A DNA stretch of 64,000 bases from an uncultured delta proteobacterium (GTDB taxonomy: Bacteria; Desulfobacterota; RBG-13-43-22): positions 32,001 to 96,000 of the forward strand of contig CAWDKY010000017.1 in the NCBI GenBank assembly GCA_963802945.1, given 5' to 3'. A model generated the notes under the pieces. It was not told the DNA's origin, did no database searches, and was given only the letters and a program-made list of their open reading frames with translations. The first letter of the stretch is position 1, and each line of letters starts with the position of its first letter. The translations under genes were made by a program, and so were the position numbers. Below, piece by piece: positions 5,597 through 61,400 of the stretch.

Positions 5597-5967
5597 GGAC
5601 AAAAAGGAATTTGATACCGTCACTCAAAGCGACAATTCTCTATCTGCTATGTTTATTTATCTTATCCAACGGATAGAAATGAATTAGAAATTCCAGAATG
5701 ATCATCTAGATGGTCACCCTTAATTTAAGACTGCAAAAATATTACCAAAAATCAGGGCCTGCAAGAAATCTATAGGAAATACCTGGAACTATAAGATAAC
5801 TGGTTAATTTATTAAGAAGAAGATGATGGCGATCAGTTGGGGCATTCTTTATTCGGGCAAAAAACTGTCTCCGCCTGTTAAAAACAAATGACAATATTGT
5901 AATGAAAGGGATTGATAAGTTAACAATTTTGTAAAGTTGATAGCCATTATCTATTTATTCTTACCTT

Positions 5968-6020
5968 CTGTTTTTCTCCTTGATCCCTTTTTTTCTTATC
6001 CTATATTCTTTTCATCTCAA
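5968..6020 (+). repeat. Copy of IS91-end-like promoter element
   Basis: TTTTCTCC-TTGATC-16-TATATT-CTTTTCATC, same layout as copies at 19.3, 21.2, 22.3, 23.4 and 61.3 kb. Confidence 0.6.
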
Positions 6021-6031
6021 CAAATTTATTT

Positions 6032-6106
6032 ATGATTATGCTGCAAGGTCGAATTGATATTCATCACCATGTCATCCCACCTGCCTTTATAGAGGCGATG
6101 ACCAAC
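6032..6106 (+). pseudogene. N-terminal fragment of an amidohydrolase_2-family gene, cut at an attC junction
   Basis: MLQGRIDIHHHVIPPAFIEAMTN carries the IDxHxH metal motif; similarity ends at the attC core. Confidence 0.6.
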
Positions 6107-6165
6107 GAAAAGCTAAGCCGGAGTGGCCCGAGAGGGACGCGATCTGCTTCATGCCGTTGTTATGC
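6100..6165 (-). mobile_element. Integron attC-like site
   Basis: GCATAAC-AACGG-CATGAAGC...GCTTAGC-TTTTC-GTTGGTC; stop codon of the upstream gene lies in the inverse core. Confidence 0.65.
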
Positions 6166-6956
6166 GTCATCTCCGATCCTTGATGCCAGCCAGTATTGGA
6201 GAATATCCTCCAGTCTCAGCCTCGGGATCTTGATAAGTCAACCTGACGCCAATTCCACTTCATCTGGCACCTCACGTCCCTCGCGCTCCGACCAGAAGTT
6301 CCCTTGAAGCCAGAGTTTCAAGTCCTCAAGATCACGCAGGCGAAAGAAGTTTCGACTGGCTTCCTGAGAGGCAAGCCACAAGGCGTCTCGGCTAAAAGTC
6401 GTATTTGTAACCGACAGACCGGCGTTGAAGAAGCTCCCCCTTCAAGACAATAGGCGATCAACATTTTCTCTGCCGGTCTTGCGCGCCTCTTGGTGATGTT
6501 TGACCTGAACAGCAACGAGTTGAAAAACAACGTTCGAAGCTCGGGAGCAATTAGGTCAATGCCACCATCTCGTGCATTGGTTGAACCGGTCCTCTGCACC
6601 TCAAAGCCCGCCTTGTCAAGACGCTCGGCCACTAAACTTTCAAATGACTCAGCCGAGAGTTCTCTTAAACGATCGGGTTCATTACCGAGCATTCGGAGCA
6701 GCTCCGATGTGATGTCAGAAACGGTGACAATTGTCGGAGTATCCACTGCTAGGAGGTCGAGGGAGCGACACCACCGCTGAAACGGACCGAACGTTGGGGG
6801 TTGCAAGCCAGCCTCCCACCGAGACAATGCTATCCGCGTTGTCCCAATGCTCACAGCGAGTTCCTCCTGTGAGACTCCGCTAACATCTCGAACATACTTG
6901 AGTACCCTACCAAGTTCTCGGGAAAACTCTGTCGGCTGCGCCCGGTGCTCCGCCAA
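6160..6956 (-). pseudogene. XRE-HTH fused to Mrr-like PD-(D/E)xK endonuclease; frameshift plus two internal stops; start uncertain
   Basis: SQEELAVSIGTTRIALSRWEAG; FESLVAERL..GFEV..TG...DGGIDL; shifted frame VAVQVKHH...VTNTTFSRDA...IGDDA*. Confidence 0.75.
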
Positions 6957-7392
6957 ATGAAACTCAGCATACAAGAAGATCGCTGCCAAGGCAGTTGCTT
7001 CGCCGAATCGGCGTTCATTGAACGCCACGTCTCGGGTTGTTTCGATTGACAGAAAGCACCGGCGACCTCGTTTCCTCGACGAATTGGGGAGCCCAGGAAG
7101 GCCTTGGGCAGCTCCCGTGAGGCGAAAAACCGATAGGGAAGGCAAGAAAAAAGGCAGGTGGCGGGAGGGGAAAGAAAAAATATTTGCTGGCTTTATGGAC
7201 CTGTATTTAGACCTCTGATTAAATAATATCAATCGGGTTGATCTATGGTAAGATAAAGTGCCAATGCATGGCATGGTCATGTTTATTCAAGGATTACTAC
7301 CTTGGATTAGACTCCGGCTGTGGCCGGAATAATGAAAAAATCCCTTCGGCGGGCTGTTGAGCCTGCACCTGATAAAAGAAAGGAGAAAAACT

Positions 7393-8382
7393 ATGTTCAA
7401 GACAGCCATCACCGACATGTTTGGAATCAAATATCCCATCATCTGCGGGGCAATGATGTTTTTATGCAAACCGAAACTCTGTGCGGCCATATCCAATGCC
7501 GGGGGAATGGGGAATCTTACGGCCGGAAATTGGGAAACGGAAGAAACCTTTCGCCAGGCCATTGAGGAAACCCGAAAAATGACCAGTAAACCCTTCACGG
7601 TCAACATCACTCTTTTGCCCTCGGTTCGTTTGAATCCCGAGAATTATCAAATGTGGCTCAGGGTATGTGCCGAAGAAAAAATCGCCGCCATCGAGATTTC
7701 CGGCACACCCATTGATAAGGCCCTGGGCATGGGAACCATTGAGATGCTCAAAAAAGCAGGGGTAAAGATGTTTCATAAAGTGGGATCAGTCAGACATGCG
7801 ATTCACGCCGAACATGTTGGCTATGACGGGATCTATGCGGCAGGTGTCGAAGAGGGAGGCCATCCCCTGAATGACGATGTCACCACTATGCTTTTGACCC
7901 CCAGAATCGTCGAATCGGTCAAAATACCGGTGGTTACGGTAGGAGGTATAGCCGACGGCCGATCTTTGGCCGCGGCTTTGGTTTTAGGCGCCCAGGGGGT
8001 GATGATGGCCAGCCGGTTTATCGCCACCCGGGAATGTGAAGTCCATGATAAGCACAAACAGGAACTGATAAACAGGCAGGAACATGAGACGGTTCTTTAT
8101 GGGCAGTCCACCGGCCTCCAGGGCCGGGGATTGAAGAACAAAACGGTATCGGAAATCATGGCCATTGAAAAACAAGGCGGCGGTCTGGATGATCTGATTC
8201 CCTTCATGTCCGGCCTGCGGATGAGGGAGGCCTGGATTTCGGGAGATACGGAATCCGCTGTCTTGCCGGTCGGCCAGTCCATCGGTCTGATCAGGGATAT
8301 CCCCACCTGTCAGGAACTCTTGGACCGCATGGGAAAAGAAACCGGGGACTATCTGAATAAAGCCGGGAAAATGATTCAGTAG
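7393..8382 (+). CDS. Nitronate monooxygenase / FabK-like FMN-dependent oxidoreductase
   Basis: MFKTAITDMFGIKYPIICGAM, SNAGGMG, EEGGH, GGIADGR..AAALVLGAQGV; AGGAG RBS. Confidence 0.9.
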   Translation: MFKTAITDMFGIKYPIICGAMMFLCKPKLCAAISNAGGMGNLTAGNWETEETFRQAIEETRKMTSKPFTVNITLLPSVRLNPENYQMWLRVCAEEKIAAIEISGTPIDKALGMGTIEMLKKAGVKMFHKVGSVRHAIHAEHVGYDGIYAAGVEEGGHPLNDDVTTMLLTPRIVESVKIPVVTVGGIADGRSLAAALVLGAQGVMMASRFIATRECEVHDKHKQELINRQEHETVLYGQSTGLQGRGLKNKTVSEIMAIEKQGGGLDDLIPFMSGLRMREAWISGDTESAVLPVGQSIGLIRDIPTCQELLDRMGKETGDYLNKAGKMIQ

Positions 8383-15988: not shown

Positions 15989-16332
15989 TGAATTTCTCCT
16001 CCTTGTTTTCTCAATAAGTCGGTTTTTGAATCATCGCGATATACTCTTGCTTCTTTTCCTTGAATTCTTAATGAACTATTGTACCCCAGATCTTAAAAAA
16101 AAGAAATGCCTTATGACTATTATCTAAGATTACCCCTTTTTCCTTTTTCAACCCGATAGGGAGCCGGAGCCTGGATTGAATTCAAGGGTGGCCGAAAGGA
16201 TCAAGGGACTGGGCAAATATAAAATGACTAATTGATCCGGACTCTATAAAATTTGTCATATCCAAGACACTTTATGGGGGACATTGGTTTCAGACATGGC
16301 TACTCTTTACTTCAAAGATGCTTTCAAATTTT

Positions 16333-16431
16333 ATTCGGGTCATAACATACCCGTTCAACTAATTCCACAAGGTCCTGGATTATGTCCTGGATTAAGGTAG
16401 GTCAACAAGGAAGATTTGACCCTCTTCCCCC
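16333..16431. repeat. Dispersed junction repeat B (about 100 bp)
   Basis: GGGTCATAA...TTCAACTA...GGATTAAGGTAGGTCAA...GAAGATTTGACCCTCTTCCC; homologous to 19432-19518 and 22653-22729. Confidence 0.75.
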
Positions 16432-16444
16432 TTGTTGATTAATA

Positions 16445-16490
16445 AAAAAGATTGGTCGGGGGGAGGAAAACATCATTCCCCCGACCAAAA
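16445..16490 (-). terminator. Intrinsic terminator after the 3-hydroxyacyl-CoA dehydrogenase gene
   Basis: TTGGTCGGGGG...CCCCCGACCAA stem followed by TCTTTTT on the minus strand. Confidence 0.6.
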
Positions 16491-16507
16491 TAGCGGACAC
16501 TACTTTC

Positions 16508-17659
16508 TTAAACTTTGATCTGACCTGCCTGCATCGTCTTCGTCGGTTTGAGTACCTCCAGCTTGAATTTATTGTATAACTCCTCCAGCTTGGCCAGGAG
16601 CACAGGATAACCGATGCCTTGGGCCAACGCAAACGGGCCGAAGGGCGATCCGCCGCCGTTGGCCAAGGCCAGGTCTATTTCTTTCGGATCTTCGCACACG
16701 CCCTCTTCGATAAGCTTGGTCGCTTCATTGACCTGGAGGGCAACCATGTGATTGAGGTCATATTCCTTGGTTGCCTTGGACAGATCGATTGCCGGCCGGC
16801 CCTTGGACCAATCGTATATGCCCTTGCCGGTCTTCTTGCCCAAGTTTCCCGATTTCAGAAAAGCCAGGATAGCCTCGGACGGCTTGTAGTCTTTGGACAG
16901 GACCTCGGCAAAATATTCCAGACCATGGACAGCAATATCGATCCCGACATAGTCTATCAGCTCAAACGGCGCCATGGGCATCATGGGTTTGAAGGCTGCG
17001 TCGAATTCTTCCGGTGAGGGATGCCCCGCTTCCAGAATCTTGGACAGCAAAAGCAGGGTTGGTTCGTTGACCCGGTTGTAAATAAAGCCGGGCGAATCTT
17101 TTTTCACAATGACAGGAACCTTATTGATTTTTTTGGCAATAGCATAGCCGATTTGGATGGACTCATCGGAGGTCTTCTTGCCCTTGATCACTTCAACCAG
17201 TTTCATCAGGATGGCCGGATTGAAAAAATGATAACCGATGACCTTGTCCGGTCTCTGCGTGGCGGAAGCAATGTCGGTGATACTGATGTTGGAGGTGTTG
17301 GACGCCAAAATGGCATGTTTGGGCGCGAACTTGTCCAGGTCGGCAAAGACGCTCTGTTTGAGCTGCAGCTTTTCGGGAACGGCTTCAATGATAAAATCGG
17401 CGTCCTTCACCGCCGTCTGCAAATCGACGATCGGGATCAGACGAGTAAAGGCGTCGGCATAAGCCTCCGGCGTCATTTTGCCCTTTTCCTTGAATTTATC
17501 AAAACTGGCCTTGATGCCGGCCATTCCCTTATCGACAAACTTCTGATCAATATCACGTAAAAATACTTTATAGCCGCCCATCAAACAGGCGGCGGCAATT
17601 CCGTGACCCATGTCACCCGCACCGATCATAGCAATCGTTTTTACATCTTCAGCTTTCAT
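16508..17659 (-). CDS. 3-hydroxyacyl-CoA dehydrogenase
   Basis: IGAGDMGHGIA, IEAVPE, ASNTS, HFFNP, PGFIYNR, GKKTGKGIY. Confidence 0.93.
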   Translation of the reverse strand: MKAEDVKTIAMIGAGDMGHGIAAACLMGGYKVFLRDIDQKFVDKGMAGIKASFDKFKEKGKMTPEAYADAFTRLIPIVDLQTAVKDADFIIEAVPEKLQLKQSVFADLDKFAPKHAILASNTSNISITDIASATQRPDKVIGYHFFNPAILMKLVEVIKGKKTSDESIQIGYAIAKKINKVPVIVKKDSPGFIYNRVNEPTLLLLSKILEAGHPSPEEFDAAFKPMMPMAPFELIDYVGIDIAVHGLEYFAEVLSKDYKPSEAILAFLKSGNLGKKTGKGIYDWSKGRPAIDLSKATKEYDLNHMVALQVNEATKLIEEGVCEDPKEIDLALANGGGSPFGPFALAQGIGYPVLLAKLEELYNKFKLEVLKPTKTMQAGQIKV

Positions 17660-17878
17660 GGCACTCTCCTCCTTCTATGTTTTTTAATTTATTGGTTTCT
17701 TGGACTGCCCCAATCCCGTTCAGGCTGTTGCTTGAACATCCCAAAACGGGATGGTTGCTATTGATAGGCGATAAAATATTTACATTTTAACACAAAAGGA
17801 TTGCGATGGAAAGTTGAATTTTCCTATCCATTAAAACTGAATACCGGTTAATTATTTAAGGTCATCCCTCATTTTATA

Positions 17879-18406
17879 CTATTTCGGCAGGAATCCCACA
17901 TCGAGGCCCGAGAAGTTGTGCTCGATGCCCATCTCGTCCAAGATCTGCGATATCTGCCCGCGGTGATGGATGCCGTGTATAACGGTCGTGCTCAAGAGGT
18001 AATGGAGGGGCACCGCGTCGGGCTTCCCGCCGAACCAGGCCACCTTGACCGGAAGGACGAGATCGTTCTCGGTAAGGGTGGCGACGAAATCGACGGTCGC
18101 CTGATCGGCGATTTGGGTGATCTTCTTAAGCTCGGCCCATTGGTCCGCGTTAAGGCTATCACCCCTGGGCACCTTGAGACCATCGGTTGCCTTAAACGCC
18201 GAGGCCGCCGCGGGTACGGCCGTGCGTAAAAAACCCTGGAAAAAAAGGACTACGCCGAAGGCGTGGCAGGCGAGACCGGAGAGACTCTTGTAGTAGCTTT
18301 TTCTGTTCTCGTTACGAGCCTCTTCCGATAGGCCATCGAGCAGGGCGATGACCGAGGCGTCAGCCCTTTGCGTGTACTTCGCATACATAAGCAGCAGATC
18401 TTTCAT
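17879..18406 (-). CDS. DinB/YfiT family protein
   Basis: HGIHHRGQISQIL; GGAGG RBS. Confidence 0.85.
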   Translation of the reverse strand: MKDLLLMYAKYTQRADASVIALLDGLSEEARNENRKSYYKSLSGLACHAFGVVLFFQGFLRTAVPAAASAFKATDGLKVPRGDSLNADQWAELKKITQIADQATVDFVATLTENDLVLPVKVAWFGGKPDAVPLHYLLSTTVIHGIHHRGQISQILDEMGIEHNFSGLDVGFLPK

Positions 18407-18522
18407 GTGATACCTCCCAATGAAAATTTATAGTATTACTAAAGTAACCTTAAAATAATTGAAGCTCCCTGCACCAGGGTGCAGTCCCGCGAGACGGGAT
18501 TCTAGGCAAGATAAGGGGGCGA

Positions 18523-19278
18523 TCATTTCCCGTCCAAATGGGAAAGCCCTTCGATAAAGGCCAGCACATTTTTGCCCAGAACAGAATGATTGTAGCCGCC
18601 TTCGAGGATGCCGAAACATCCGCCTTTATTGTTTCGAGCGGTCTCCCTGACCAGTCTGCCCATAAAGGTATAATCTTCGGTTTTGAGAAGCCCTCCCCAA
18701 TCCGCTTCATGATTATCGAATCCGGCGGAAACAGCGATCATATCGGCATCGGTCCGGGCTAGGGAATCTTCCACGCTCTTTAAATATTCCATTCGGTTTT
18801 GGGCTGAGGGATTAAAGATGGTCACATATCCACGGCCGCCCAGAATGTTAACATTCCCGTCCCCGAAGTGCAGATCGAAATCCAGAATAAAGGCTTTTTT
18901 GATTTTCCCTTCCTTCTTTAATTTTTCGAGGGCAATGGACATATTGTTGAAATAACAGAAACCCCAAGCGCTTGAGGCCGAGGCGTGATGACCCGGCGGA
19001 CGAATCAGGGCAAAACAGGGTTCGGTCAACCCGATCCGGGCGGCTAAGACGGCGCCTCCCGCGGCCATGGCGGCTATATCATAGACACCCTCTTGTTCGA
19101 CGGATTGGATATGCCCTGGTGTGTGGGCACGGAGAATATCCTCCCGTGTCGCCGCCACAGGGGTCAAAAAATGGACTTTCCCCCGCAGTTCCGTTTCGAC
19201 GGCCAGGATTCTTCCCGGGGCCGAAGCGGGGTCAGAAGAATAAATTTGGTTATAATCTTCATGAAAGACGACCTTCAT
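18523..19278 (-). CDS. Histone deacetylase / AcuC family Zn hydrolase
   Basis: RPPGHHA, GFCYFNN, DFDLHFGDG, SAGFD, LEGGY. Confidence 0.93.
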   Translation of the reverse strand: MKVVFHEDYNQIYSSDPASAPGRILAVETELRGKVHFLTPVAATREDILRAHTPGHIQSVEQEGVYDIAAMAAGGAVLAARIGLTEPCFALIRPPGHHASASSAWGFCYFNNMSIALEKLKKEGKIKKAFILDFDLHFGDGNVNILGGRGYVTIFNPSAQNRMEYLKSVEDSLARTDADMIAVSAGFDNHEADWGGLLKTEDYTFMGRLVRETARNNKGGCFGILEGGYNHSVLGKNVLAFIEGLSHLDGK

Positions 19279-19334
19279 CTCTTCCTCACTTTATCCGGGG
19301 CCACAAAAATTATTTTTAACCACGGGCCCAAAGA

Positions 19335-19518
19335 ACTTTTTTGCTGGAAAGAGTATAAGACAAGAACAAGACCGGGGCAAGGGGAAAAGCAAATCGAAAA
19401 TCCTTCTATTGACCGATGGAGGCCTGGTCTAATCGGGGCCATAAAACACCAAGTTAACTTAGGCAACAACGTCTTGGATTAAGGTATGTCAATAATGAAG
19501 ATTTGAGCCTCTCCCCCC
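19335..19518 (-). repeat. Repeat B joined to IS91-end-like promoter element
   Basis: TTGCCC(19375-19380)-17-TATACT(19352-19357) facing the deacetylase gene; aligns with 22317-22520 and 21230-21325. Confidence 0.8.
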
Positions 19519-19558
19519 TTTTGATGCCCGGGGAAACTTTCCCCGGGCATCGTGTATA

Positions 19559-21097
19559 TTATTTTTTTGTCAACCCGATGCTTTCATAAGACTCGTCGAT
19601 AGGAGGCATTTTTACGAAATACGGCCGCGCCGGAAGCTTTCCATAGATGGGATGTTCCTGCCAACCGTTTATACGGGCCGCCCGTTTGGCCGCCGATTGG
19701 TATCTTTTCCAGTCAGCGCTGGTATAGAGAAACATCTCCTGAGCGGCCATGGACCCTTCACCGTGAATGGTATCGACCTCGTAGTGATTTCCGGTGTAGT
19801 CCTTGATGAGCCGCAATATGCGAATCCGGTCCTCTGTCGGCACCCCGTCTTTGGCCGCCAGATATTTTTCAATGTAGGGTTGTATGGCCGGATTTTTCCA
19901 GTCCCGATAGGCCGGCACCGTGGTGGTCAATCCACCCCCGATATCCTGCATATGTTGGACCATCTGGTGAAAATTGCTGGCATAGGTGAACTTGGAGGCA
20001 TTAATGGCCATCCGATTGGGCATCATGACATCCATTCCAAATTCGGTGACCGGATCCTGGCAGGCCTGTTTCCCCAACATCTGCACCGTTTCCGTAATAT
20101 AGGCCATCCAGGCCAGCTTTTTCCGGACGTGCGGGACATTCTGGACACCGTTATATTCAGCGATCAGGCTCGCTGCCCCGGTCATGGTTTCAAGAGTCCC
20201 CGTCATCTTGCAGGTGCCGAAGAGGCGGTGGTAACTGGCGAAGGCATAGGCCAGGATTTGGGAATACTCCCACTCGCCGCACATAAAAACCCGTTCCCAG
20301 GGCACAAAGACATTATCGAAGATGATCAAAGATTCCGAGGGCTGCATGTGGTCCGATATGGGATAATCGAATTCACATTCCTCCCCGTAGAGCCGGACAT
20401 TCGGCTCTACCCCCAAAAGCTTGACACCGGGCGTGCTAACAGGTACGGCAAAGGCCAGGGCATAGTCCTTGTCTGCTTCGCCATGGGTCCGGCAGGGCAG
20501 GCAGAGCAGCTCATTGGCACAGGGAGAGGCGCTGATATGCACCTTGGCGCCCCGGACCACGATGCCGTCCTTCTGCCGATCTACTATCCTCAGGTAAAAG
20601 TCCTGGTGCTGTTTCTGCTTGGAGGGGTGAAGGCTTCGATCCCCCTTAACATCAGTAATGGCCCCGGTGATGGCCAAATCGTTCTTTTGCAGATGTTTGC
20701 GGTACTGCTCGACCCGCTCCATATACCCGGTGCCCAGTTTGCTGTCCATGACCTGGGCAGCGACGGTAAAGGCGGCCAGGGCATCGGCGCCCATGCAATG
20801 GACGATTACTCCTCCGCCGGATCGGATCCCGACCGTGTAGCATTCCCGCCGGCGAAGAAGGTCTTCCGGTGTTTTCGGAGAAGTCAGCAAAAAATTAATA
20901 TCTTCGCCGTCTTCATTCTGGGTCACAAAGAGCTTCCGATAATCCGGGTGATTGGGCAGGACATAGTCCATGCAGGCCGTTCTGATGATGGTACTCACCG
21001 TCGGATGGGTCCGCACATCAGCCACCTTTTCTCCCAGACACCAGACTTCCCGTCCGTCATTCAAACTTTCAAGATACTGTTCTACTGTTTTTATCAT
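19559..21097 (-). CDS. 4-hydroxybutyryl-CoA dehydratase / HpaB-family flavoprotein (AbfD-like)
   Basis: YLESLNDGREVW, AITDVKGDRSL, VRGAKVH, IFDNVFVPWERVFMCGE, YHR, HGEGS. Confidence 0.88.
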   Translation of the reverse strand: MIKTVEQYLESLNDGREVWCLGEKVADVRTHPTVSTIIRTACMDYVLPNHPDYRKLFVTQNEDGEDINFLLTSPKTPEDLLRRRECYTVGIRSGGGVIVHCMGADALAAFTVAAQVMDSKLGTGYMERVEQYRKHLQKNDLAITGAITDVKGDRSLHPSKQKQHQDFYLRIVDRQKDGIVVRGAKVHISASPCANELLCLPCRTHGEADKDYALAFAVPVSTPGVKLLGVEPNVRLYGEECEFDYPISDHMQPSESLIIFDNVFVPWERVFMCGEWEYSQILAYAFASYHRLFGTCKMTGTLETMTGAASLIAEYNGVQNVPHVRKKLAWMAYITETVQMLGKQACQDPVTEFGMDVMMPNRMAINASKFTYASNFHQMVQHMQDIGGGLTTTVPAYRDWKNPAIQPYIEKYLAAKDGVPTEDRIRILRLIKDYTGNHYEVDTIHGEGSMAAQEMFLYTSADWKRYQSAAKRAARINGWQEHPIYGKLPARPYFVKMPPIDESYESIGLTKK

Positions 21098-21229
21098 CTT
21101 AATTCCTCCTTTTTATTAAACGCCATTGTAAAAAATTGTATTTTTGAAAACATACACATCCCCAGGATCATAGAGGACCCGCATCGGCAATTAAAAGCGA
21201 TCAAAGGTCTTTTATTATAAGTTGAAAAA

Positions 21230-21325
21230 GTTTCCTTCTGGATGGAAAGAGTATAAGGCAAGAATAAGACTGGGGCAAGGAGAAATGTAAATCGCAAACC
21301 CTTCTTTGGACCGTTGGTTGCTAAA
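21230..21325 (-). repeat. Copy of IS91-end-like promoter element
   Basis: CCAACGGTCCAAAGAAGG...TTTCTCC-TTGCCC(21273-21278)-17-TATACT(21250-21255)-CTTTCCATC. Confidence 0.8.
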
Positions 21326-21465
21326 AATATCGTTATTATGCCCCAGGAATCCCCGGACAGTGGCCTTTTAATTGGTGACCCCCTTCCTAATCCTGGCCTT
21401 TGAGTTCAGAGCCGTCAAGGATAAGAACCAGATCACTCATCATATCCTCTAAAACAAACTTTCAA

Positions 21466-22291
21466 TCATTCATTGAGAGGGAAGAAATCCGGCATATCGC
21501 CGGGGACCTTCAGTTTCCATTCCGGTTCCCGTTTTTCCAGGAAAGAAGTCACCCCTTCCCGTGCATCGGGTTGCAAACCGGTCCAGGCATAATATTTGTG
21601 ATTGATCCTTTCGGCCTTTTCCGGATCGGGTTCACTTAAGAATTGATAAAGCATGTGTTTGGTCAGGGCCACACTGACCGGGGCGCAGTTTACGGCGATG
21701 TCCCTGGCCAGTTCCCGGGCTGTCGGCATGAGTTGGTCGTCCGGCACCACTCGGCTAACCAACCCAAATTCCAGGGCCTCCCGGGCGGTCAGGATCCGGC
21801 CGGTATACATCAATTCAGCCGCCCGGCTGATTCCGACGATCCTCGGAAGAAGCCAGGCACAGCCCACCTCCGGGATGATTCCCCGACGGTTGAAAACGAT
21901 TCCCAGACGGGCGCTCTCGGCTGCGATACGGAATATCATAAGGCAAAGTCATGGTTACACCCACTCCCACGGAAGGCCCATTGTAAGCCACGATGACAGG
22001 TTTTTTAAGTGAAAAATAATATTTCAAAAGGCTGGCACGTCTTTCCTCAGGCGGGCGTTTGGTCCGGTCAAAAGTGTCCCCTCCTCTTTGAAGATCGGCA
22101 CCGGCACAGAATCCCCGGCCCGCCCCGGTCATAATGGTCACTCTCATTTCAGGATCCTCTTCAACTTCCATGAGGGCCTGGCGGATCTCCTGCCCCATGG
22201 TCTGGGTAAAAGCATTGAGCCGTTCTGGCCGGTTCAGGGTTATGAAGGCAATCCTTTCCGCTTTTTCAAAAATAATCTGGGTATAATTCAT
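21466..22291 (-). CDS. Enoyl-CoA hydratase/isomerase (crotonase); 1-nt frameshift near 21932
   Basis: ITLNRPERLNA, GFCAGADL, VGVGVTMTLPYD / IRIAAESAR, GIIPE, EGVTSFLEKR; AAGGAG RBS. Confidence 0.9.
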
Positions 22292-22316
22292 TTTTGTCTC
22301 CTTTGCGAATATTTTT

Positions 22317-22520
22317 GATAAGAATTTTCTTTTTGATGGGAAGAGTATAAGGCAAGAAAAAGACGGGGGCAAGGAGAAAAGCAGGGCGGAAGAGAAGGGG
22401 ACGAAGGGCGACTTCTTCTCCATTAATACAGGAATCGAAAGACCTTCTTTGGGCCGTTGGTGGCGTAGTTTATTCGGGCCATAAAATACCAATTCAACTA
22501 TTTCAACAACGTATCGGAAA
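22317..22520 (-). repeat. Longest copy of the IS91-end-like promoter element, with oriIS-like tail
   Basis: TTGCCC(22367-22372)-17-TATACT(22344-22349)-CTTCCCATC-AAAAAGAAAATTCTTATC ending about 25 bp before the ATG. Confidence 0.8.
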
Positions 22521-22652
22521 ACGATTTTTAAGATCAACAGACCGCCCCGTTGACTTGCTTTAGTACGCCGTAATGTGCAAGATTCAGAACCGGACCTCCG
22601 ACCTGCTCAAATCCATGAACCTTCGATCATCTCCAACTCTTTTGGAGATGAT

Positions 22653-22729
22653 CATAAAATAGTAGTTCAATTCATTCACCAATGCCCTCGATTAAGGCAT
22701 GTCAACCAGGAAGATTTGAGCCTCTTCCC
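22653..22729. repeat. Dispersed junction repeat B
   Basis: CATAAAAT...GATTAAGGCATGTCAACCAGGAAGATTTGAGCCTCTTCCC. Confidence 0.75.
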
Positions 22730-22742
22730 ATATTCATCTTGA

Positions 22743-23387
22743 TTAGGGTTTCATCCCGACCTTTAATCCCCATCCGAGCATTGCCAGGGCTACCATTTCA
22801 ATAAGATGAAAGATACCATTATGATCAAATGGGAAAAGAACCTTCATCGAGACATGGCTGGCCTGCACTCCGGCCGCAACTAGGCTTAGAAGGATTGCCA
22901 AAGAAATCCATCCGGACCCTTTCGCCCGCTGAGTGACGGCCAGGAAAGAATAGATAGCCAGCGTGCCAATAATGGCCAAGGCTTCATAGTTAACGAAGAT
23001 GATCAATGCACTGTCGAAAAACCGACCCAGTACAAAAAAGATAATACTCACTGCCGCAATTAACCCAACGAGACGTTTGGCCATATCCCTGCCACGCCAA
23101 TCCAATAGAGCGCCGGCGACCAAAAGCGCAACGGCTACCCCAAGACATAAAAAGAGAGGCAGCCAAAGCGCTTCACGCAGGGAAGACTGCTTATCCAAAC
23201 CATGAGCAACAGCACCCATAAAGGAAGAAAACGCCAGAAGGCCGAACACCCAACACCACAGGGAAGTTCTCCATCGGTCAACGGCCAGGGCCCGCCACAG
23301 GCCTATCAGGATGAAGACACACTCGATGGCCAGAAACAGGTCGGTTGCACTGGTTGTAAGTTCGGTTGGAGATTTAATCAGGATCAT
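22743..23387 (-). CDS. Multi-pass membrane protein of unknown function
   Basis: About 7 hydrophobic segments; GAVAHG and FDHNGIFH His motifs; the track's TTG start at 23471 falls inside the promoter element. Confidence 0.75.
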   Translation of the reverse strand: MILIKSPTELTTSATDLFLAIECVFILIGLWRALAVDRWRTSLWCWVFGLLAFSSFMGAVAHGLDKQSSLREALWLPLFLCLGVAVALLVAGALLDWRGRDMAKRLVGLIAAVSIIFFVLGRFFDSALIIFVNYEALAIIGTLAIYSFLAVTQRAKGSGWISLAILLSLVAAGVQASHVSMKVLFPFDHNGIFHLIEMVALAMLGWGLKVGMKP

Positions 23388-23415
23388 AACGGCCTGATGA
23401 CGGTAAAATTGAATG

Positions 23416-23490
23416 GCTAAGAAGTTGCTTTTTGATGGTAAGAATATAAAATAAGATAAAAGAGCGGTCAAGGAGGAAAAAGGAAGAAAA
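23416..23490 (-). repeat. Copy of IS91-end-like promoter element with tail
   Basis: TTGACC(23466-23471)-17-TATATT(23443-23448)-CTTACCATC-AAAAAGCAACTTCTTAGC. Confidence 0.75.
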
Positions 23491-27552: not shown

Positions 27553-28042
27553 GGGTTTTCCTTTCTCCGCTATACTTAAATAGTTAAGTCTCCCCGCGCT
27601 CATCAAATGATAGCGGGACATTACTATTTTCGTCCCAGACCTTCATCTCATCTTTGGATAAAAATGGTTTTATAATACACACCATTTATTAAAATGGAAG
27701 TATTTATTTCCGGTTGAACTATAGGCTATATTGACAATGAAAACCTAAAAAAACGGCAAAGATTTGTCAAATTAATAATTATTATATTATTTATTAATGT
27801 TATAAAAACACGGAAACTGCCCCACAAAGTCAATGAAAATTAATCAAATTTTCTTTGCCGACTTTTGGGAAAAGGCTGGAGAGAGATAAGCAGCCCATTT
27901 CGGGTTTCTCTTGCCCTCGGGGGCGGAAGAAACTATAATTGGTCGGAAAAAAGACAGTTCGGAGTTCAGAGTTCAGAGAGTGGAGATTGGAGAAACCTAA
28001 TTTTCATAACTCTTAATGCCCTAATGGAAAAGGATATCGATT

Positions 28043-29071
28043 ATGCGCGTGGCCATGTATTATAACAATAGGGATATTCGAATCGAGGAGATGCTCAAAC
28101 CAGCCATTGGTCCAGGTGAAGTGTTGATCCAAATAGAGGCCAGCGGGATCTGCGGAAGTGATGTCATTGAATGGTACCGGATCCACAAGGCCCCTCTGGT
28201 CTTGGGGCATGAGATAGCCGGGCAGATCGTCGAGGTCGGGGATCGGGTTAAGAAATACCGGGTGGGTGACCGGGTGGCCGCCTCCCATCATGTGCCCTGC
28301 AATACTTGTTATTATTGCTTAAGCGGCCATCAGACGGTTTGCGATACCTTGCGCTCAACCAATTTTTATCCCGGTGGCTTTGCCGAATTTGTCCGTTTGC
28401 CTCCGATCAATGTGGACCGGGGGATTTACCCTTTGCCCGACGATATGTCTTATGAAGCGGCTACCTTTATCGAGCCCTTGGCCTGTGTCTTAAGGGCTCA
28501 ACGAATCGCCGGCCTGTCCCCGGGGCAGACCGTACTAGTATTGGGCAGCGGGATCTCTGGCTTGCTCCACATCCAAATGGCCAGGGCCTTAGGGGCCGGG
28601 AAGATCATGGCCACCGATGTCAGCGAATACCGGATGAAGGCGGCCAAGGCCCTGGGGGCCGATGAGGTTGTCAAAGCCCAGGACTTGACCCCAGACCTTT
28701 TAAAAAATTTCAACCAGGGCTTTTTGGCCGACCAGGTGATCATCGCCACCGGGGCAGAGCAGGTTCAACTTCAAGCCTTATCCCTGGTTGAACGGGGGGG
28801 GACCGTTCTCTTTTTCGCCCCAACCGATCAAGGAGTCACCATTCCCATTTCCATAAACGACCTGTTTTTCAGAAACGATATCACCTTAACCACCTCTTAT
28901 GCCGGCAGTCCGGCTGACCACTTCCGAGCGCTACAATTAATCGAAGCCGGTGCCTTGAATATTAATCGGTTGATCACCCATCGCCTTGGGCTGGCCGAAA
29001 CGGGGAAAGGATTTCAGTTGGTTGCCGAGGCCAAAGATTCCATCAAAGTGATTGTGGAGCCGCAACGATAA
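28043..29071 (+). CDS. Zn-dependent alcohol dehydrogenase (sorbitol/threonine dehydrogenase-like)
   Basis: GICGSD, LGHE, CNTCYYC..C, IEPLACV. Confidence 0.92.
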   Translation: MRVAMYYNNRDIRIEEMLKPAIGPGEVLIQIEASGICGSDVIEWYRIHKAPLVLGHEIAGQIVEVGDRVKKYRVGDRVAASHHVPCNTCYYCLSGHQTVCDTLRSTNFYPGGFAEFVRLPPINVDRGIYPLPDDMSYEAATFIEPLACVLRAQRIAGLSPGQTVLVLGSGISGLLHIQMARALGAGKIMATDVSEYRMKAAKALGADEVVKAQDLTPDLLKNFNQGFLADQVIIATGAEQVQLQALSLVERGGTVLFFAPTDQGVTIPISINDLFFRNDITLTTSYAGSPADHFRALQLIEAGALNINRLITHRLGLAETGKGFQLVAEAKDSIKVIVEPQR

Positions 29072-29114: not shown

Positions 29115-29175
29115 CCACTTTTCCCCTTGACCCTATCTGGGGCTTATTTTATACTCATTTCAACCAAAAGGTATT
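29115..29175 (+). promoter_or_regulatory. sigma70 promoter resembling the dispersed element
   Basis: TTTTCCCC-TTGACC(29127-29132)-17-TATACT(29150-29155). Confidence 0.6.
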
Positions 29176-29248
29176 CTTGCCAAATATTATCAAAGAGTTT
29201 AATTCGAAGAAGACGCTCAATTATCGAAAGAAAAAAAGGAGAAATACC

Positions 29249-30139
29249 ATGCCCGATGTAGAAGACCATAAAGAAGGGAAAAGATATTGCCCGGACATTC
29301 CCCAGCAGACCGAAGGATTTTTTCTTAAGGGATCCAATGCCCTGGATTGGGGGATGAAAAACCGGCTGGCCCGGATCTTCAATCCAAAATCAGGTCGAAC
29401 GGTGATGCTGGCCGTGGATCATGGTTATTTCCAGGGACCTACCACAGGTCTGGAGAGGATGGATTTAAGTATCCTGCCCATCGCCCCCTATGCGGATACC
29501 CTAATGCTGACCAGGGGAATTTTACGCAGTATTATCCCCCCTTCCCTTTCCCCATCCATTGTCCTCAGGGTGTCGGGAGGAACCAGCATCTTGAAGGAGC
29601 TTAGCAACGAAGAAATTGCAGTGGATATTGAAGACGCCATCCGGTTGAATGTTTGCGCCATGGCCGTCCAGGTATTTATCGGGGGGGAGTACGAGCGCCA
29701 ATCCATCATAAACATGACCAAAATGGTGGACCAAGGAACCCGGTACGGCATTCCCACCCTGGCCGTCACCGCCGTGGGCAAGGATATGGCTCGGGATGCC
29801 CGTTACTTCAGGCTGGCCACCCGTATTTGCGCTGAACTGGGCGCCCATTATATAAAAACCTATTACATTGAAGAGGGCTTCGAAACGGTTATTGCCTCAT
29901 GTCCGGTGCCTATCGTCATGGCTGGCGGTAAGAAGATCCCCGAATTAGATGCCTTGACTATGGCCTATCGCGCGATTCAGCAAGGGGCCTCCGGCGTAGA
30001 CATGGGCAGAAATATCTTTCAATCGGATTTCCCTGCGGCTATGATCCAGGCCGTTCGGGCCGTGGTCCATAATAACGCCACCCCGAAAGAGGCTTTTGAG
30101 CTATACAAGAACTTGAGTAAATCTAAAAAGAAAAGATAG
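29249..30139 (+). CDS. lsrF: LsrF-like thiolase / DhnA-type class I aldolase
   Basis: [64 protein letters not shown]; AGGAG RBS. Confidence 0.88.
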
Positions 30140-31456: not shown

Positions 31457-32554
31457 TCAGAACCAGAAGGCTAAGACGCACTGGATGGTCTGTGCCCGAC
31501 CAAATTCGGGCTCGATTTCCGGTAACATATTGTACTGGTAGGCTGCCTGGATGCAGCACCACTTGGAGAGGAAGGCACTGAGGCCAAAGCTCACCCCGAC
31601 GTTTTCCTCCAAATCAATAGAGGGACTAAACCGCACAAAGAGCCACTCCAAGAGGCGGTGTTCAATCCCGGCATTAAATCGGTGAATTACCAGGTTGTCT
31701 TGGTCACTGTTGAAAATCCCAAGTTGATAATCCAGGAAGATGGTAGATCCCTTGGCATACTCGTAGGAGAGACCTGGACGCAGGATATATTGCTGTTGAT
31801 TACCATTGGCCTCAATGGTCTGATTTATAGGAGAAGGCAAGGAAGGAAGACTTATCTGGGCCGTTGTCGTGGAGTGATAGGGTTGCCAACCATACTCCAA
31901 GATCATCCCAAGAAGCCACTTTTCGGCTGGCTGATAAAGTCCGCCGATGCGGACGCGATAACTGTCGGCTGAGGTCTCGGTAGCCACGTTCACTGGCATC
32001 ATCTGCGGAAACCCGGGGATTTGGCTAAGTAAGGTCCCATTTCGCTTGACAGTAGCTTGTGCAAAGTTGAGATCTACGCCGAGGGCGTAGTTCCCAAACC
32101 GCTTGCCCCATTGTACCTGGCCCACATCTACCGGGTAATCGAAGGTCAGGCCATCCCGGGCGATAGCGTTGTTGGTGCGAACCTGACTGAGGGTAGGCTG
32201 AATGACGCCCCAACTCCGTGTGTCCCAAGTCATGGACTCGCCGAACAGGTTCAGTTGCATCCCTGCTTGGAAGTTGAGAAAGGAGTAGTAGGGGGACACC
32301 AAGATCCCATTTTCACTAGGGAGGGATGTCCAGTCTAAAGAGGCTGGGTTGACTGCCGAAGAAAACCTGTTGGCTACTGTCTCGCCGCCCAAGGAGGAGA
32401 TCTCGGTGAATTGGAGAGAGGCTGCCGGCAAGCGGACGGAAAAGTCGTAGTTGCTGTAATCGCCCGCAGAAAGGACTATGTAGGGAAAGATAATGAGAAC
32501 CAGGAGAGAGAAGACAGGCAGGCTATAACGAAAATTTCCCTGAGATATCTGCAT
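31457..32554 (-). CDS. Exported, probable outer-membrane beta-barrel protein
   Basis: Signal peptide, NPASL, alternating aromatic strands, C-terminal Phe. Confidence 0.6.
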   Translation of the reverse strand: MQISQGNFRYSLPVFSLLVLIIFPYIVLSAGDYSNYDFSVRLPAASLQFTEISSLGGETVANRFSSAVNPASLDWTSLPSENGILVSPYYSFLNFQAGMQLNLFGESMTWDTRSWGVIQPTLSQVRTNNAIARDGLTFDYPVDVGQVQWGKRFGNYALGVDLNFAQATVKRNGTLLSQIPGFPQMMPVNVATETSADSYRVRIGGLYQPAEKWLLGMILEYGWQPYHSTTTAQISLPSLPSPINQTIEANGNQQQYILRPGLSYEYAKGSTIFLDYQLGIFNSDQDNLVIHRFNAGIEHRLLEWLFVRFSPSIDLEENVGVSFGLSAFLSKWCCIQAAYQYNMLPEIEPEFGRAQTIQCVLAFWF

Positions 32555-32594: not shown

Positions 32595-32665
32595 GGTAAT
32601 AATTTTGCTTAAGGAGTTGTTATGATTATCATGTTAGGGAGAGGGGGTCAAGAGGAAAAAGGAGA
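32595..32665 (-). repeat. Degenerate copy of the promoter element
   Basis: TTTTTCCTC-TTGACC-15-GATAAT...AAGCAAAATTATTACC. Confidence 0.4.
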
Positions 32666-37953: not shown

Positions 37954-38502
37954 TCAATCAGACAGGGCCGTTTTTTCTTCTTCAATAAACCGATTCAACT
38001 CTTCTTCTTCCATTAAGGGGTGGGCCTGTTTCCGATCCATCTTACGGTTTAATCGGTAAACGGATTCATTGAGATCTTCAAAATACAAATACAATTCGGA
38101 GTCCCTTTCTTCGGTCCGAAGCCATTGGATATAAGGCACCAAGAAGCTGAAATATCCCAGTATGGGGGTTCCAAAGGCCTGCCAGGTTTCTTGCTTGGAA
38201 AGGATCTCTTTTTGGACTAAGAAACCAAAGCGGTCAAAAAAATTAAGGACCTCGGCGGAATGGGCTTGAAGTTCCTTCATATCGGTTCGATCCGTCAGGA
38301 TGAGCCGTTGACGACATTTCCTCATTTCGGATGACTGGTAGTAAAATTCAAGGTGACCCAATTCCAAGACCGCCATTGTTTTCCTGAGTCCTCTTATTCG
38401 CCTTAAAATTACCCATAGAAAAATGAAAAAGATTAAGAAGGCCAGGAAAAATCCGGCTTCGGGGACTAAAACCGCATCCAGAATCATACCTATATCATTC
38501 AT
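37954..38502 (-). CDS. Membrane-anchored hypothetical protein
   Basis: 182 aa, one N-terminal TM helix; GGGAG RBS. Confidence 0.7.
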   Translation of the reverse strand: MNDIGMILDAVLVPEAGFFLAFLIFFIFLWVILRRIRGLRKTMAVLELGHLEFYYQSSEMRKCRQRLILTDRTDMKELQAHSAEVLNFFDRFGFLVQKEILSKQETWQAFGTPILGYFSFLVPYIQWLRTEERDSELYLYFEDLNESVYRLNRKMDRKQAHPLMEEEELNRFIEEEKTALSD

Positions 38503-38579
38503 ATCAAAATCACTCCCTTGAAGAAAAACAAGAAGGCGATTAGCTAATTCCCGAAACTAAAAAATTTTACACAAAATAT

Positions 38580-38740
38580 TTGACAGTACCCTATATTAAT
38601 CTATAATTGAAGCTTCGTCAAAAGGAAAATGATTCCCCTCCACCGGCTTCTTTGGCCTTCCTTTGGCAACGCCTTAGCAAACACTATCCTTCTTTATCCT
38701 TGACCCCTTTCCTCTCTCATTTTATAATACCTCCATTTAA
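38580..38740 (+). promoter_or_regulatory. Tandem promoters separated by an IS91 transposase micro-fragment
   Basis: TTGACA-16-TATAAT (38580-38607); GCTTCGTCAAAAGGAAAATGA (38612-38632) identical to 59178-59198; TTGACC-17-TATAAT (38700-38728). Confidence 0.65.
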
Positions 38741-38992
38741 AATAATATTTCCCAATATGAATAAGTTTGAGGCGGGACATGAATAGTAACTATTCAGATA
38801 CGAAAAAAAACATTCAGCTATTGAGCAATCAATTTTTATGCATCCTGGTGCCCGCCACAGGCGGCCTGAAAGTTATTTCATTTGACACCGAGTGCCTAAA
38901 AACATAAAATGCAGCCGGATAACATATCAACCGAGTTTGTATTATTGCGTGGCTCGAACAATATTCTAAATTTAAATTAAGGAGAACAACCG

Positions 38993-48202: not shown

Positions 48203-48362
48203 ACTGATACACTCCTTGATAAATACGTTCTCTTAAAGCAATCTTAAAACAAAAGGATAACGGAGGTTGTTACAAGTCAAATCGAGAGTTCAGAGTTCAA
48301 AGGTACCTGCTTCTACTCTGAACTAATTACTCCGAACTAATAAAGGCCTCTCGCCTCTTTTT

Positions 48363-48869: not shown

Positions 48870-48967
48870 AACCATCACCTCCTAATTTAATTTCGAATTG
48901 TCGATTGCGGATTTTAGAATGTTTTTTACTCTGAATTCCGGAATCCGAAATCTGTAATCAATATTAA

Positions 48968-59037: not shown

Positions 59038-59141
59038 CGTCTCTCTTTCTCCGCGCGCCTCGCCTGATACACGTTTGAGGAGTCGCCAGCGGTAACAAGA
59101 CACGCGGGCGCGCGAAAAATTGCGCCTTGCTTGACTGCGAG

Positions 59142-59200
59142 CCGATACTATGGCTCCTAAAGTAACGCTTCCAGGGGGCTTCGTCAAAAGGAAAATGAGG
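59142..59200 (+). mobile_element. IS91-family transposase micro-fragment
   Basis: CCGATACTATGGCTCCTAAAGTAACGCTTCCAGGGGGCTTCGTCAAAAGGAAAATGA aligns with 61049-61109. Confidence 0.75.
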
Positions 59201-59278
59201 AAGCCTTTGATCAGGATTTCGGGATTTCCGTAGATCACTGCTCCGTTTAAGATAAGCAGACCATAACTTAAGAGAAAC

Positions 59279-60754: not shown

Positions 60755-60924
60755 TGTAACCCCTTGTTTTTTATGTCGCGCCTATTTTAAGAGTCTCAAT
60801 GTAATAATGACCCCAAAAGACCCCCCCGTTCTTATTCAAGGGAAGTCTTTCCATTTCATGCCTTGACAATAAAGAGACCTTTAATAGGTTATGGGTTCTT
60901 TATCACTCCCTGATTTAGAGGGAT

Positions 60925-61400
60925 TCATCATACCGACCATCCGGGCCTGGTTCCCAGAGGAACGCTGGTCAGAAGTGCTTCGATGGACAACCGGAGTTTG
61001 GCTGGCAGCCATGGCTTCCCATATCCCTGGCCAGCGTGAACAAATGGTCCGATACTATGGCTTCTATAGTAACGTTTCCAGGGGGGCTTCGTCAAAAAGA
61101 AAATCAAGATAACCTCATCCCCTGTGTTAAAGAATCAGATGAGAACGTCAAACCCAATCAGAACTGGCCCAAATTGATTCAGAAAATTGGAGCCTTTCTC
61201 GGACATGATCCGGGAAAGTTGACCCCCTAACCTGCCCGTTCTTTTTCACTTATCACATTCTAAATATTAAGTCCAAACCGGTAAATTCCCATTTCCCTCA
61301 GAGGCCCTCCTTCGTTCCCTTGCCTCGGGTATCATTTTTCTCCTTAATCATATTTTTTTCTTCTTTTATATTTTTCCCATTCAAAAGCAATGCCTTATCA
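60925..61400 (+). mobile_element. Decayed IS91/ISCR-family (HUH Y2) transposase 3' part with downstream end and outward promoter
   Basis: IRAWFPEER, WLAAMASHIP..EQMVRYYGFYSNVSRG, NWPKLIQKI, VDPLTCP across frames; then TTAATC-17-TATATT and AAAAGCAATGCCTTATC. Confidence 0.8.

Follow-up and report, generated by a model that had tools for sequence, protein, structure and literature searches.

An IS91-Family Right End Probably Reused as a Promoter of Many Genes in Uncultured Thermodesulfobacteriota

Introduction

A short element recurs upstream of unrelated genes in a 64,000-nucleotide stretch of DNA from an uncultured delta proteobacterium (assembly GCA_963802945.1, contig CAWDKY010000017.1, positions 32,001 to 96,000), which is referred to here as the window. 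Sequence comparison identifies the element as the last 70–150 nucleotides (nt) at the right (oriIS) end of an insertion sequence (IS) of the IS91 family. This family is common in Thermodesulfobacteriota, and the window is found to hold solo or miniature copies of the end without transposase. The right end carries a near-consensus, predicted sigma-70-type promoter, TTG(A/C)CC-17-TATA(C/T)T, which is preceded by TTTTCTCC and faces out of the IS, and alignment places the conserved tail CATCAAAAAGCAAnTTCTTAT at the close of the IS. Many genes with no relation to one another have a copy upstream that is directed into them. It is probable that this IS91-family right end has been reused as the promoter of many genes, with copies dispersed through genomes and modules reshuffled by recombination.

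Copies of the Element in the Window

A repeat search of the window returned a four-copy family (19327-19388, 21225-21286, 22319-22380 and 23418-23479) that is 62 nt long, with members 76–84% identical to the reference copy and three of the four reaching 82 nt. Five matches to the motif CCTTGMCC-N10-CTTR-NN-TTATAYTC are present in the window, in these four array copies and at 29125-29156 on the plus strand, versus no occurrence in 100 shuffles. The array copies are situated 52–152 nt from minus-strand start codons, one copy per gene (n = 4). All four are flagged by a promoter-consensus scan with 9–10 of 12 matches and a 17-nt spacer, values that express consensus match only. A first-pass annotation of the same DNA had proposed that four consecutive minus-strand genes each possess their own copy of one element with sigma-70-type boxes; the repeat search and motif count bear out the former point, and the consensus scan of the array copies the latter.

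Additional copies were scored with an nhmmer profile made from the four array copies. Six had been proposed, of which those at 29.1, 61.3 and 6.0 kb were recovered and that at 38.7 kb only weakly so (Table 1). The remaining two are unsupported: the site at 32595 on the minus strand (E = 21, not significant) is promoter-like only, and the profile found no match at 7130-7180 on the same strand. A scan of the whole window against Rfam yielded no matches at gathering thresholds.

Origin of the Element

The source of the element is suggested by the copy at 61 kb, which follows a transposase remnant. The section of that remnant at 60888-61112 matches Pfam Y2_Tnp (E = 0.0027, 18.2 bits) and aligns by tblastn with a longer remnant at locus L038 (E = 2e-15), so that the IS91-type remnant noted by the first-pass annotation is real and the element lies directly downstream of it. 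L038 itself contains three IS91-family transposase 3′ parts (...MVRYYGFYSNVSRG...) with Y2_Tnp matches at 1e-10 and 9e-7, and the element is found ~150–200 nt past the transposase stop codon after each of the three. The same succession, a transposase 3′ part and then the element, is common to the window (60888-61398), L045 and L038.

Relatives of the transposase are abundant. When the L038 transposase fragment was used as the query, thousands of plasmid IS91-like transposases were matched. Among the best 120 of 571 longer relatives, proteins of ~445–458 amino acids (aa) carry both Zn_Tnp_IS91 and Y2_Tnp domains, and full-length relatives with 60–70% identity are numerous in metagenomic proteins named from metagenome-assembled genomes (MAGs) of Thermodesulfobacteriota or Deltaproteobacteria. 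The best plasmid match was to Trichlorobacter lovleyi pIAE1 (NZ_CP058410.1), with 51% identity over the C-terminal part of the transposase and 14 matched places. The T. lovleyi transposase carries both domains and scores 173.9 bits on NCBIfam transpos_IS91 (cut-off 125). Its score of 135.3 bits on NCBIfam ISCR_clade_Ia, versus a cut-off of 925, places it outside the ISCR clade.

Homology of the right end was judged against this T. lovleyi IS, the ends of which were set by comparing five identical copies among the 14 matched places. It is an intact, 1673-nt element present in multiple copies on the plasmid, with a left end that starts AACGGGGCTGAGGCACCACCGGCTTGACCGGTG and a right end that reads ...CCATTGACGTAATCCCATTTCCAGTGGTATACAGTCTGCATCGAAAAAGCAAATTCCTAT, beyond which the flanks differ (TCCT in three copies, TGAC in two). 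The core of its right end is TTGACG-N18-TATACA-GTCTGCATCGAAAAAGCAAATTCCTAT. The TTGAC box, the TATAC box at 17/18 nt and the tail of the window element all align with it, and 25 of 33 columns are identical, by our own count, between the crotonase copy and the T. lovleyi IS from TATAC to the terminus. Since the right end of an intact IS aligns with the element, the earlier guess that it represents an IS91-type right end was correct, as is also indicated by the layouts at L038, L045 and 61 kb; in T. lovleyi, an intact IS91-family transposase does end in a homologous sequence. In a set of 29 copies, the four positions that follow ...TTAT hold C (27 copies), A (24), A (23) and A or T (27), after which the sequence is random. 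This CAA(A/T) next to the terminus may be either target or IS sequence.

Two further observations concern these ISs and their remnants. In the 147–197 kb region of pIAE1 (L078), four of the five IS copies share at least 230 nt past the left end, and two share an alpha/beta hydrolase gene plus a YoeB/antitoxin pair; the shared left flanks look like read-through (one-ended) transposition or segmental duplication. A small palindromic insert (..CCCGGACATGATCCGGG..) is located within transposase remnants of the window (61165-61200) and L038 (~1060-1110 and 7435-7470), where copy b of L038 has an intact coding sequence instead. Either a very small mobile hairpin or a lesion inherited from a common ancestor may account for the insert.

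Distribution and Orientation of Copies

The spread of the element was surveyed with one exact-motif scan of a species-representative genome collection of 596 Gb. The scan gave 73 loci in 20 assemblies, nearly all of which are titled delta proteobacterium or Thermodesulfobacteriota, against ~9 matches expected by chance (own arithmetic). Bins of MAGs may be mixed, and L049, for instance, is labelled Ignavibacteria. A census profile was then built from 74 pattern copies and used to search the window and all loci, and removal of overlaps left 91 copies. L064 (contained in L065) and the part of L053 that overlaps L052 were removed before counting. Four likely chance matches (L025, L030, L041 and L054) were left out of the profile, although they were still searched; L030 was recovered and counted as lying inside an opposite open reading frame (ORF). 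Genes around the copies were predicted from codon usage and ribosome-binding sites, by a caller trained on window genes with Pfam support.

At positions that the search pattern left free, the copies have in common TTTTCT 5′ of the −35 box and TTCCCATCAAAAAGCAAnTTCTTATCAA 3′ of the −10 box, and their likeness ends sharply after ...TTAT-CAA(A/T). The tail motif is present with three or fewer mismatches in 39 of the 91 copies, versus 51 of 20,000 random 45-mers (0.26%), and with four or fewer in 51 of 91, versus 1% of random 45-mers.

Orientation relative to genes is strongly biased. The next gene is co-oriented for 81 of the 91 copies, 78 of them within 400 nt, while five copies face a convergent gene, one lies in an opposite ORF and four are at contig ends. 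The distance from the −10 box to the start codon has a median of 93 nt (interquartile range 61–154). In tandem gene contexts, 48 copies are parallel to the genes and two antiparallel (p = 2e-12). Thirty copies lie between divergent genes and two between convergent genes, as compared with 68 divergent and 47 convergent among 407 background intergenic regions.

The proteins encoded downstream of the 81 copies fall into 56 families. Among the 61 that were scanned are seryl-tRNA synthetase (serS), thymidylate kinase (tmk), MreB, ketoacyl synthases, HIT proteins, O-methyltransferases, transporters, regulators and radical SAM enzymes. Because core genes are included in these 56 families, the element is not tied to CoA metabolism or to accessory genes. 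The proposal that it stocks the genome with CoA-catabolic genes is not supported, and of the related expectation that copies are oriented into single accessory genes, the orientation stands (81/91; 48:2 in tandem contexts) while the accessory character does not (serS, tmk, mreB).

Certain copies are kept before orthologous genes, namely those of a HIT protein in five assemblies, an aldolase in four and a response regulator in four. Such retention at several orthologous genes in three to five species argues for selection rather than recent movement. Two other candidate comparisons were rejected. The window and L059 each have a copy downstream of purQ, but the two are not orthologous. In L059, an isolated fragment of the element's tail, CAAAAGGAAATTCTTATCAAAAAA, stands alone just after purQ (~5600-5650, minus strand) and is followed by a small two-gene insert (toxin–antitoxin-like by eye) and then by a full element plus tmk. 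Likewise, an NMO gene has a copy in L051, whereas its counterpart in the window (7393-8382) has none on that strand; the upstream flanks are non-homologous, and the pair is therefore no clean empty site.

Gene-Order Differences Between Relatives

A contig that is 88–94% identical to the window, JBEKPQ010000139 (L064/L065), presents the array genes in another order. In the window the order is DinB, deacetylase, AbfD-like, crotonase, DUF6962 and purQ; in the relative it is DinB, deacetylase, DUF6962 and AbfD-like, followed by genes for an acyl-CoA dehydrogenase and an IS1182 transposase. The relative has no crotonase unit at the corresponding place, and each gene keeps its copy of the element. 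The copies of the relative are chimeric: from the spacer and −10 box onward each tracks its downstream gene, while the sequence 5′ of the −35 box tracks the upstream context. Thus the order breakpoints fall inside the element, in the −35/spacer region, and not at its terminus. Breakpoints within the repeat indicate recombination between copies and are a misfit with cleavage at an IS terminus.

Associated Pieces, Repeats and Genes

Some copies are accompanied by a second relic of the transposase. A coding piece of 55–64 nt (around ...YYGFYSNVSRGLRQKEN) was found at eight loci, three in the window (38578-38632, 59140-59200 and 61044-61107) and one each in L036, L045, L047, L068 and L070. Read antisense, it contains TTGACG-17-TACTAT/TAATAT, and the gene behind it is divergent in all eight cases. 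The piece lies directly 5′ of an element copy at 38.6 kb in the window and in L036, L068 and L070, and the combination looks like a compact bidirectional promoter module. An AMP-binding (acyl-CoA synthetase-like) gene at 59279-60754 is located between two direct repeats of this transposase-derived piece (59142-59201 and 61049-61109) that are 89–92% identical.

A second repeated module, U, was missed by the first-pass annotation. It occupies the space that separates the preceding gene from the element, and has the form GGGAAGAGGCTCAAATCTTCC..TTGACATACCTTAATCC..GTTGAATTGGTATTTTATGGCCCGAATAGAC..CCAACGGCCCAAAGAAGG. Module U accompanies the element in several species (L003, L014, L020, L023, L026, L037, L058, L060 and L065). 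It was considered as the left (terIS) end or another part of the IS and rejected as such for want of evidence, since local alignment of U with the T. lovleyi IS, with the left 200 nt of that IS and with the L038 remnant gave z scores of −1.4 to +0.3. A separate family of intergenic repeats, consisting of runs of heptamers like AGTTCAGAG and AGTTCGGAG in both orientations, is present at 778-890, 27956-27992, 48256-48341 and 48924-48954.

With respect to the genes that follow window copies, the 4-hydroxybutyryl-CoA dehydratase (AbfD) label of the gene at 19559-21097 is that of the first-pass annotation; HpaB family membership alone was shown. The two frames of the enoyl-CoA hydratase gene overlap at 21815-21939, with an apparent extra base near 21930, and the split gene is either a pseudogene or an assembly error. 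The aldolase gene at 29249-30139 scores 507 bits (cut-off 297) on the NCBIfam model for 3-hydroxy-5-phosphonooxypentane-2,4-dione thiolase (LsrF type). Its DNA is 90–96% identical in three relatives, in which the neighbouring genes are 72–91% identical; for L005 and L066, the neighbours reach 72–88%. Recent transfer of the element and aldolase as a unit is not claimed, since strong constraint explains the aldolase identity equally well; the aldolase is equally conserved with respect to the closest relative, L018. The 91-aa ORF after the 6-kb copy seems truncated by a convergent HTH/Mrr gene (6318-7280), and its start (..IDIHHHVIPP..) resembles what we take to be an amidohydrolase N-terminus.

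Table 1. Positions of element copies, transposase-derived sequences, module U and array genes in the window.
Feature	Position	Strand	Remarks
Diverged element copy	5962..6023	+	nhmmer E = 2e-4; 16-nt spacer; precedes 91-aa ORF (6032-6307)
Module U copy	16331..16431	−	After 3-hydroxyacyl-CoA dehydrogenase gene; no element behind
Histone-deacetylase-family gene (Hist_deacetyl), 251 aa	18523..19278	−	Domain scan
Element copy (P), deacetylase gene	19322..19399	−	TTGCCC-17-TATACT; terminal tail shortened by deletion; −10 to start codon 73 nt
Module U (U1+U2)	19430..19518	−	Between terminator hairpin of AbfD-like gene and element
HpaB-family gene (HpaB_N/HpaB), 512 aa	19559..21097	−	Domain scan
Element copy (P), HpaB/AbfD-like gene	21222..21297	−	TTGCCC-17-TATACT; 152 nt to start codon
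Enoyl-CoA hydratase (crotonase) gene, frameshifted near 21930	21466..22291	−	Two frames, ECH_1 positions 2-133 and 112-249
Element copy (P), crotonase gene	22314..22391	−	Most complete copy; tail AAAAAGAAAATTCTTATCAA, 0 mismatches to tail motif
Extra stretch 5′ of crotonase copy	22381..22422	−	Homologous to IS part between transposase stop and promoter-like core; alignments with L038, L003, L026, L037
Split module U	22470..22730	−	~125-nt insertion; U1+U2 at 22650-22730, partial second U2 at 22470-22525; upstream of crotonase copy
DUF6962 membrane protein gene	22743..23387	−	Domain scan
Element copy (P), DUF6962 gene	23413..23484	−	TTGACC-17-TATATT; 10/12 consensus matches
Element copy, DeoC/LsrF-type aldolase gene (29249-30139)	29116..29183	+	nhmmer E = 1.5e-9; kept at orthologous site in L005, L018, L066
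Isolated transposase coding piece	38578..38632	+	Antisense TTGACG-17-TAATAT, 76 nt from divergent gene 37954-38502
Weak diverged element copy	38693..38742	+	TTGACC-17-TATAAT; nhmmer E = 3.3, not significant; 3′ of transposase-derived piece 38578-38632
Isolated transposase-derived piece	59140..59247	+	Residues 62-79 joined to 172-188 of L038 query fragment; divergent gene 54715-59037 lies 103 nt behind
IS91-family transposase 3′ remnant	60888..61230	+	Two frames, internal deletion; contains ...MVRYYGFYSNVSRG...
Transposase-derived piece inside 61-kb remnant	61044..61107	+	Divergent AMP-binding gene 59279-60754 behind
Element copy at 61 kb	61332..61398	+	nhmmer E = 1.3e-4; ~100 nt past end of transposase remnant; lpxD start ~290 nt downstream

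Proposed Explanation and Alternatives

Under the favoured explanation, copies of the right end would now act as promoters of the genes that follow them, with transcription starting a few nt after the −10 box, in which case each of the four genes at 18.5–23.5 kb would be its own transcription unit. The copies may have arrived by IS insertion with subsequent loss of the transposase, or as right-end miniatures moved in trans, as is known for IS801. The many similar copies would then constitute portable homology, and recombination among them would have reshuffled single-gene modules in close relatives.

Several points weigh against this explanation. Promoter activity and start site are predictions from sequence. 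The transposase remnant of the window, at 18.2 bits, scores under the Pfam Y2_Tnp cut-off of 20.9 bits, and the analysis turned up no intact IS from the lineage of the window itself. When the last 104 nt of four copies were folded as DNA, on both strands, no significant hairpin emerged (−0.1 to −5.4 kcal/mol; z −0.97 to +1.12 versus shuffles), a search that may miss weak stems; the oriIS regions of IS91 and IS801 are reported to contain subterminal palindromes. Local alignments found no similarity of module U to the T. lovleyi IS or the L038 remnants. The census is biased, as its loci were fetched by an exact pattern that already requires the −35 and −10 boxes, and it relies on a simple, purpose-made gene caller. 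Orthologous loci are not independent, and the count is thus one of 56 gene families and not of 81 events. Forty of the 91 copies have a tail with five or more mismatches, whether diverged or with insertions and deletions. Moreover, other promoter-like sites in the window, located before 896-5332 (−), 28043-29071 (+) and 31457-32554 (−), share TTTTyTCC-TTGACC/TTGCCC-17-TATAcT but lack a tail or any further likeness. Some census entries may therefore represent the lineage's ordinary promoters rather than IS relics.

These last observations lend themselves to a different account, in which the element is a mere preferred housekeeping promoter of the lineage that came about by convergent likeness and that the IS just happens to carry. 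The tail-less sites upstream of three other window genes, the 40 census copies without a recognisable tail and the presence of core genes downstream are all in keeping with it. Nevertheless, the array copies are 76–84% identical over 62–82 nt, spacer and transcribed tail included, and that tail is the terminus of an IS at which likeness stops sharply. In addition, some solo copies come with stretches of IS 3′ flank and of the transposase gene, and boxes and tail also occur together in the T. lovleyi IS, the transposase of which is just 51% identical. Convergence on a housekeeping promoter is accordingly judged very doubtful, though the IS end may have either set or copied the preferred promoter of the lineage. 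Strand-biased insertion is known for other HUH single-strand transposons, and it raises the prospect that the element is a selfish repeat with no promoter role, its orientation arising from HUH strand or target bias and its boxes serving in transposase recognition. The conservation of the boxes between distant IS relatives is what would be expected of a recognition site, and in T. lovleyi one copy (the L074 match) directly adjoins a convergent gene whose annotation is on the opposite strand. Against this, no plausible gene-strand bias would be large enough to yield both the 48:2 split seen in tandem contexts and the scarcity of copies between convergent genes (2, versus 47 of 407 in the background). 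Different species also keep copies at orthologous sites even as the non-core parts of those copies decay, and a hairpin of the kind typical of HUH recognition was not found in the terminal 104-nt folds of four copies. A purely selfish repeat has little probability.

The order of array genes bears on yet another mechanism, the integron-like capture put forward by the first-pass annotation. Here, the transposase would nick one right end and stop at the next co-oriented end, and the resulting gene-plus-end circles would reinsert and build arrays. Four single-gene units in a row, each with its own copy, would result from such a process, as might the different gene order and missing crotonase unit in a relative that is ~90% identical. 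For IS91 and IS801, two reports document transposition from one end and the acquisition of neighbouring DNA (bioRxiv 10.1101/2025.01.24.634351; PMC3189936), and the shared left flanks of the T. lovleyi copies, with their hydrolase and toxin–antitoxin genes, would be consistent with read-through of this kind. However, the breakpoints relative to the related contig lie inside the element and bear the signature of recombination between repeats. Rolling-circle transposition, as far as the available sources describe it, moves the transposase side of oriIS and not the downstream gene, which is the wrong direction of mobilisation for capture. The window contains no intact transposase, and many copies, including those before serS, tmk and mreB, have a fixed place at sites that are orthologous between species. 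Because the breakpoints avoid the terminus and rolling-circle transfer carries the transposase side, capture is considered possible but unsupported, and we regard it as unlikely. Improbable as well is the notion that solo ends plus a transposase in trans form an integrase-free cassette system. Co-oriented oriIS ends would there delimit single genes, excision would proceed from an end to its neighbour, and reinsertion would take place next to a further end; captured genes would gain a strong promoter and, where the antisense piece is present, a bidirectional one. Reuse of the IS91-family right end as a promoter, with reshuffling by recombination between copies, remains the probable explanation.

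Significance

To our knowledge, work on IS91/ISCR elements has been almost confined to their part in carrying and activating the resistance and virulence genes of clinical proteobacteria. In this instance, an IS91-type end appears to have been taken over at large scale as an everyday promoter: copies stand before at least 56 gene families, core genes included, in 17 assemblies of uncultured Thermodesulfobacteriota plus the window. If confirmed by transcription, this would stand as a clear example of how part of a transposon can rewire expression across a bacterial genome, would provide a ready-made strong promoter for a lineage that lacks genetic tools, and would show that dispersed IS ends can make gene order fluid. 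In practical terms, the element may serve annotators as a marker of transcription-unit starts in Thermodesulfobacteriota genomes that possess it.

Comparison with Known Systems

In the literature consulted, neither this element nor the domestication of IS91 ends as promoters was found to have been described before, beyond the papers on ISCR1 and IS801. The closest parallel is ISCR1, in which two outward promoters (POUT: PCR1-1 and PCR1-2) within a 232-bp oriIS region drive downstream resistance genes (PMC6218425), and the analogy drawn by the first-pass annotation is an apt one. Like the element described here, ISCR1 is IS91-related and has promoters between the transposase stop and the end of oriIS (~230 bp) that face variable downstream genes. 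The −10 hexamers of ISCR1, in contrast, match the consensus at only four and three of six positions (PMC6218425), and its promoters match poorly overall, whereas the window element matches at 9–10 of 12 positions over both hexamers. ISCR1 is also tied to its transposase, to class 1 integrons and to resistance genes, while the present copies are mostly solo, chromosomal and placed before ordinary genes of environmental bacteria, and the related intact T. lovleyi transposase falls far below the ISCR clade model (135 versus a cut-off of 925).

Miniature forms of IS801 offer a second parallel, given that IS91-family right-end fragments exist there without transposase. Fragments of 229, 360 and 679 nt transpose in vivo, although the authors view right-end fragments mainly as a supply of homology for recombination (PMC3189936). 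The available text of that report describes no promoter role for them, and they are continuous pieces of the right end, unlike the copies studied here, in which the upstream module U is not recognisably part of an IS. As for IS91 itself, the last 82 bp suffice as oriIS, and the family is characterized by a target tetranucleotide and subterminal palindromes (bioRxiv 10.1101/2025.01.24.634351). Features shared with IS91 and IS1294, the family members studied by experiment, include a Y2 HUH transposase that in intact relatives has a zinc-binding domain at its N-terminus, ends that differ from each other, a right end 3′ of tnpA, a short stretch of which is enough as oriIS, and perhaps a conserved tetranucleotide adjoining the end. 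The sequence at that place is CAA(A/T) in the window element, as opposed to CTTG, GTTC or GTCC, and no subterminal palindrome was detected in folds of four copies. In the T. lovleyi pIAE1 IS the last ~60 nt are homologous to the element, with TTGAC-N17/18-TATAC and CATC(G)AAAAAGCAAATTC(C/T)TAT in common, but that IS is intact, 1673 nt long and multi-copy on a plasmid.

Near-identical promoters before unrelated genes have been catalogued across genomes as putative mobile promoters (PMC3575422); the present case differs in that the source element and its terminus are identified. The array further recalls integron cassettes, as single genes stand in a row in one orientation and their order varies between relatives. 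Scanning of 20 ORFs in and around the array found no integrase or recombinase; attC and attI sites were not searched for. Unlike cassettes that share one Pc, each window gene has its own promoter-like copy, and the reshuffling breakpoints look like homologous recombination. Relative to the known ISCR1 POUT promoters and IS801 right-end miniatures, what appears to be new is the combination of near-consensus boxes, the many ordinary genes apparently served and copies that are mostly solo and chromosomal.

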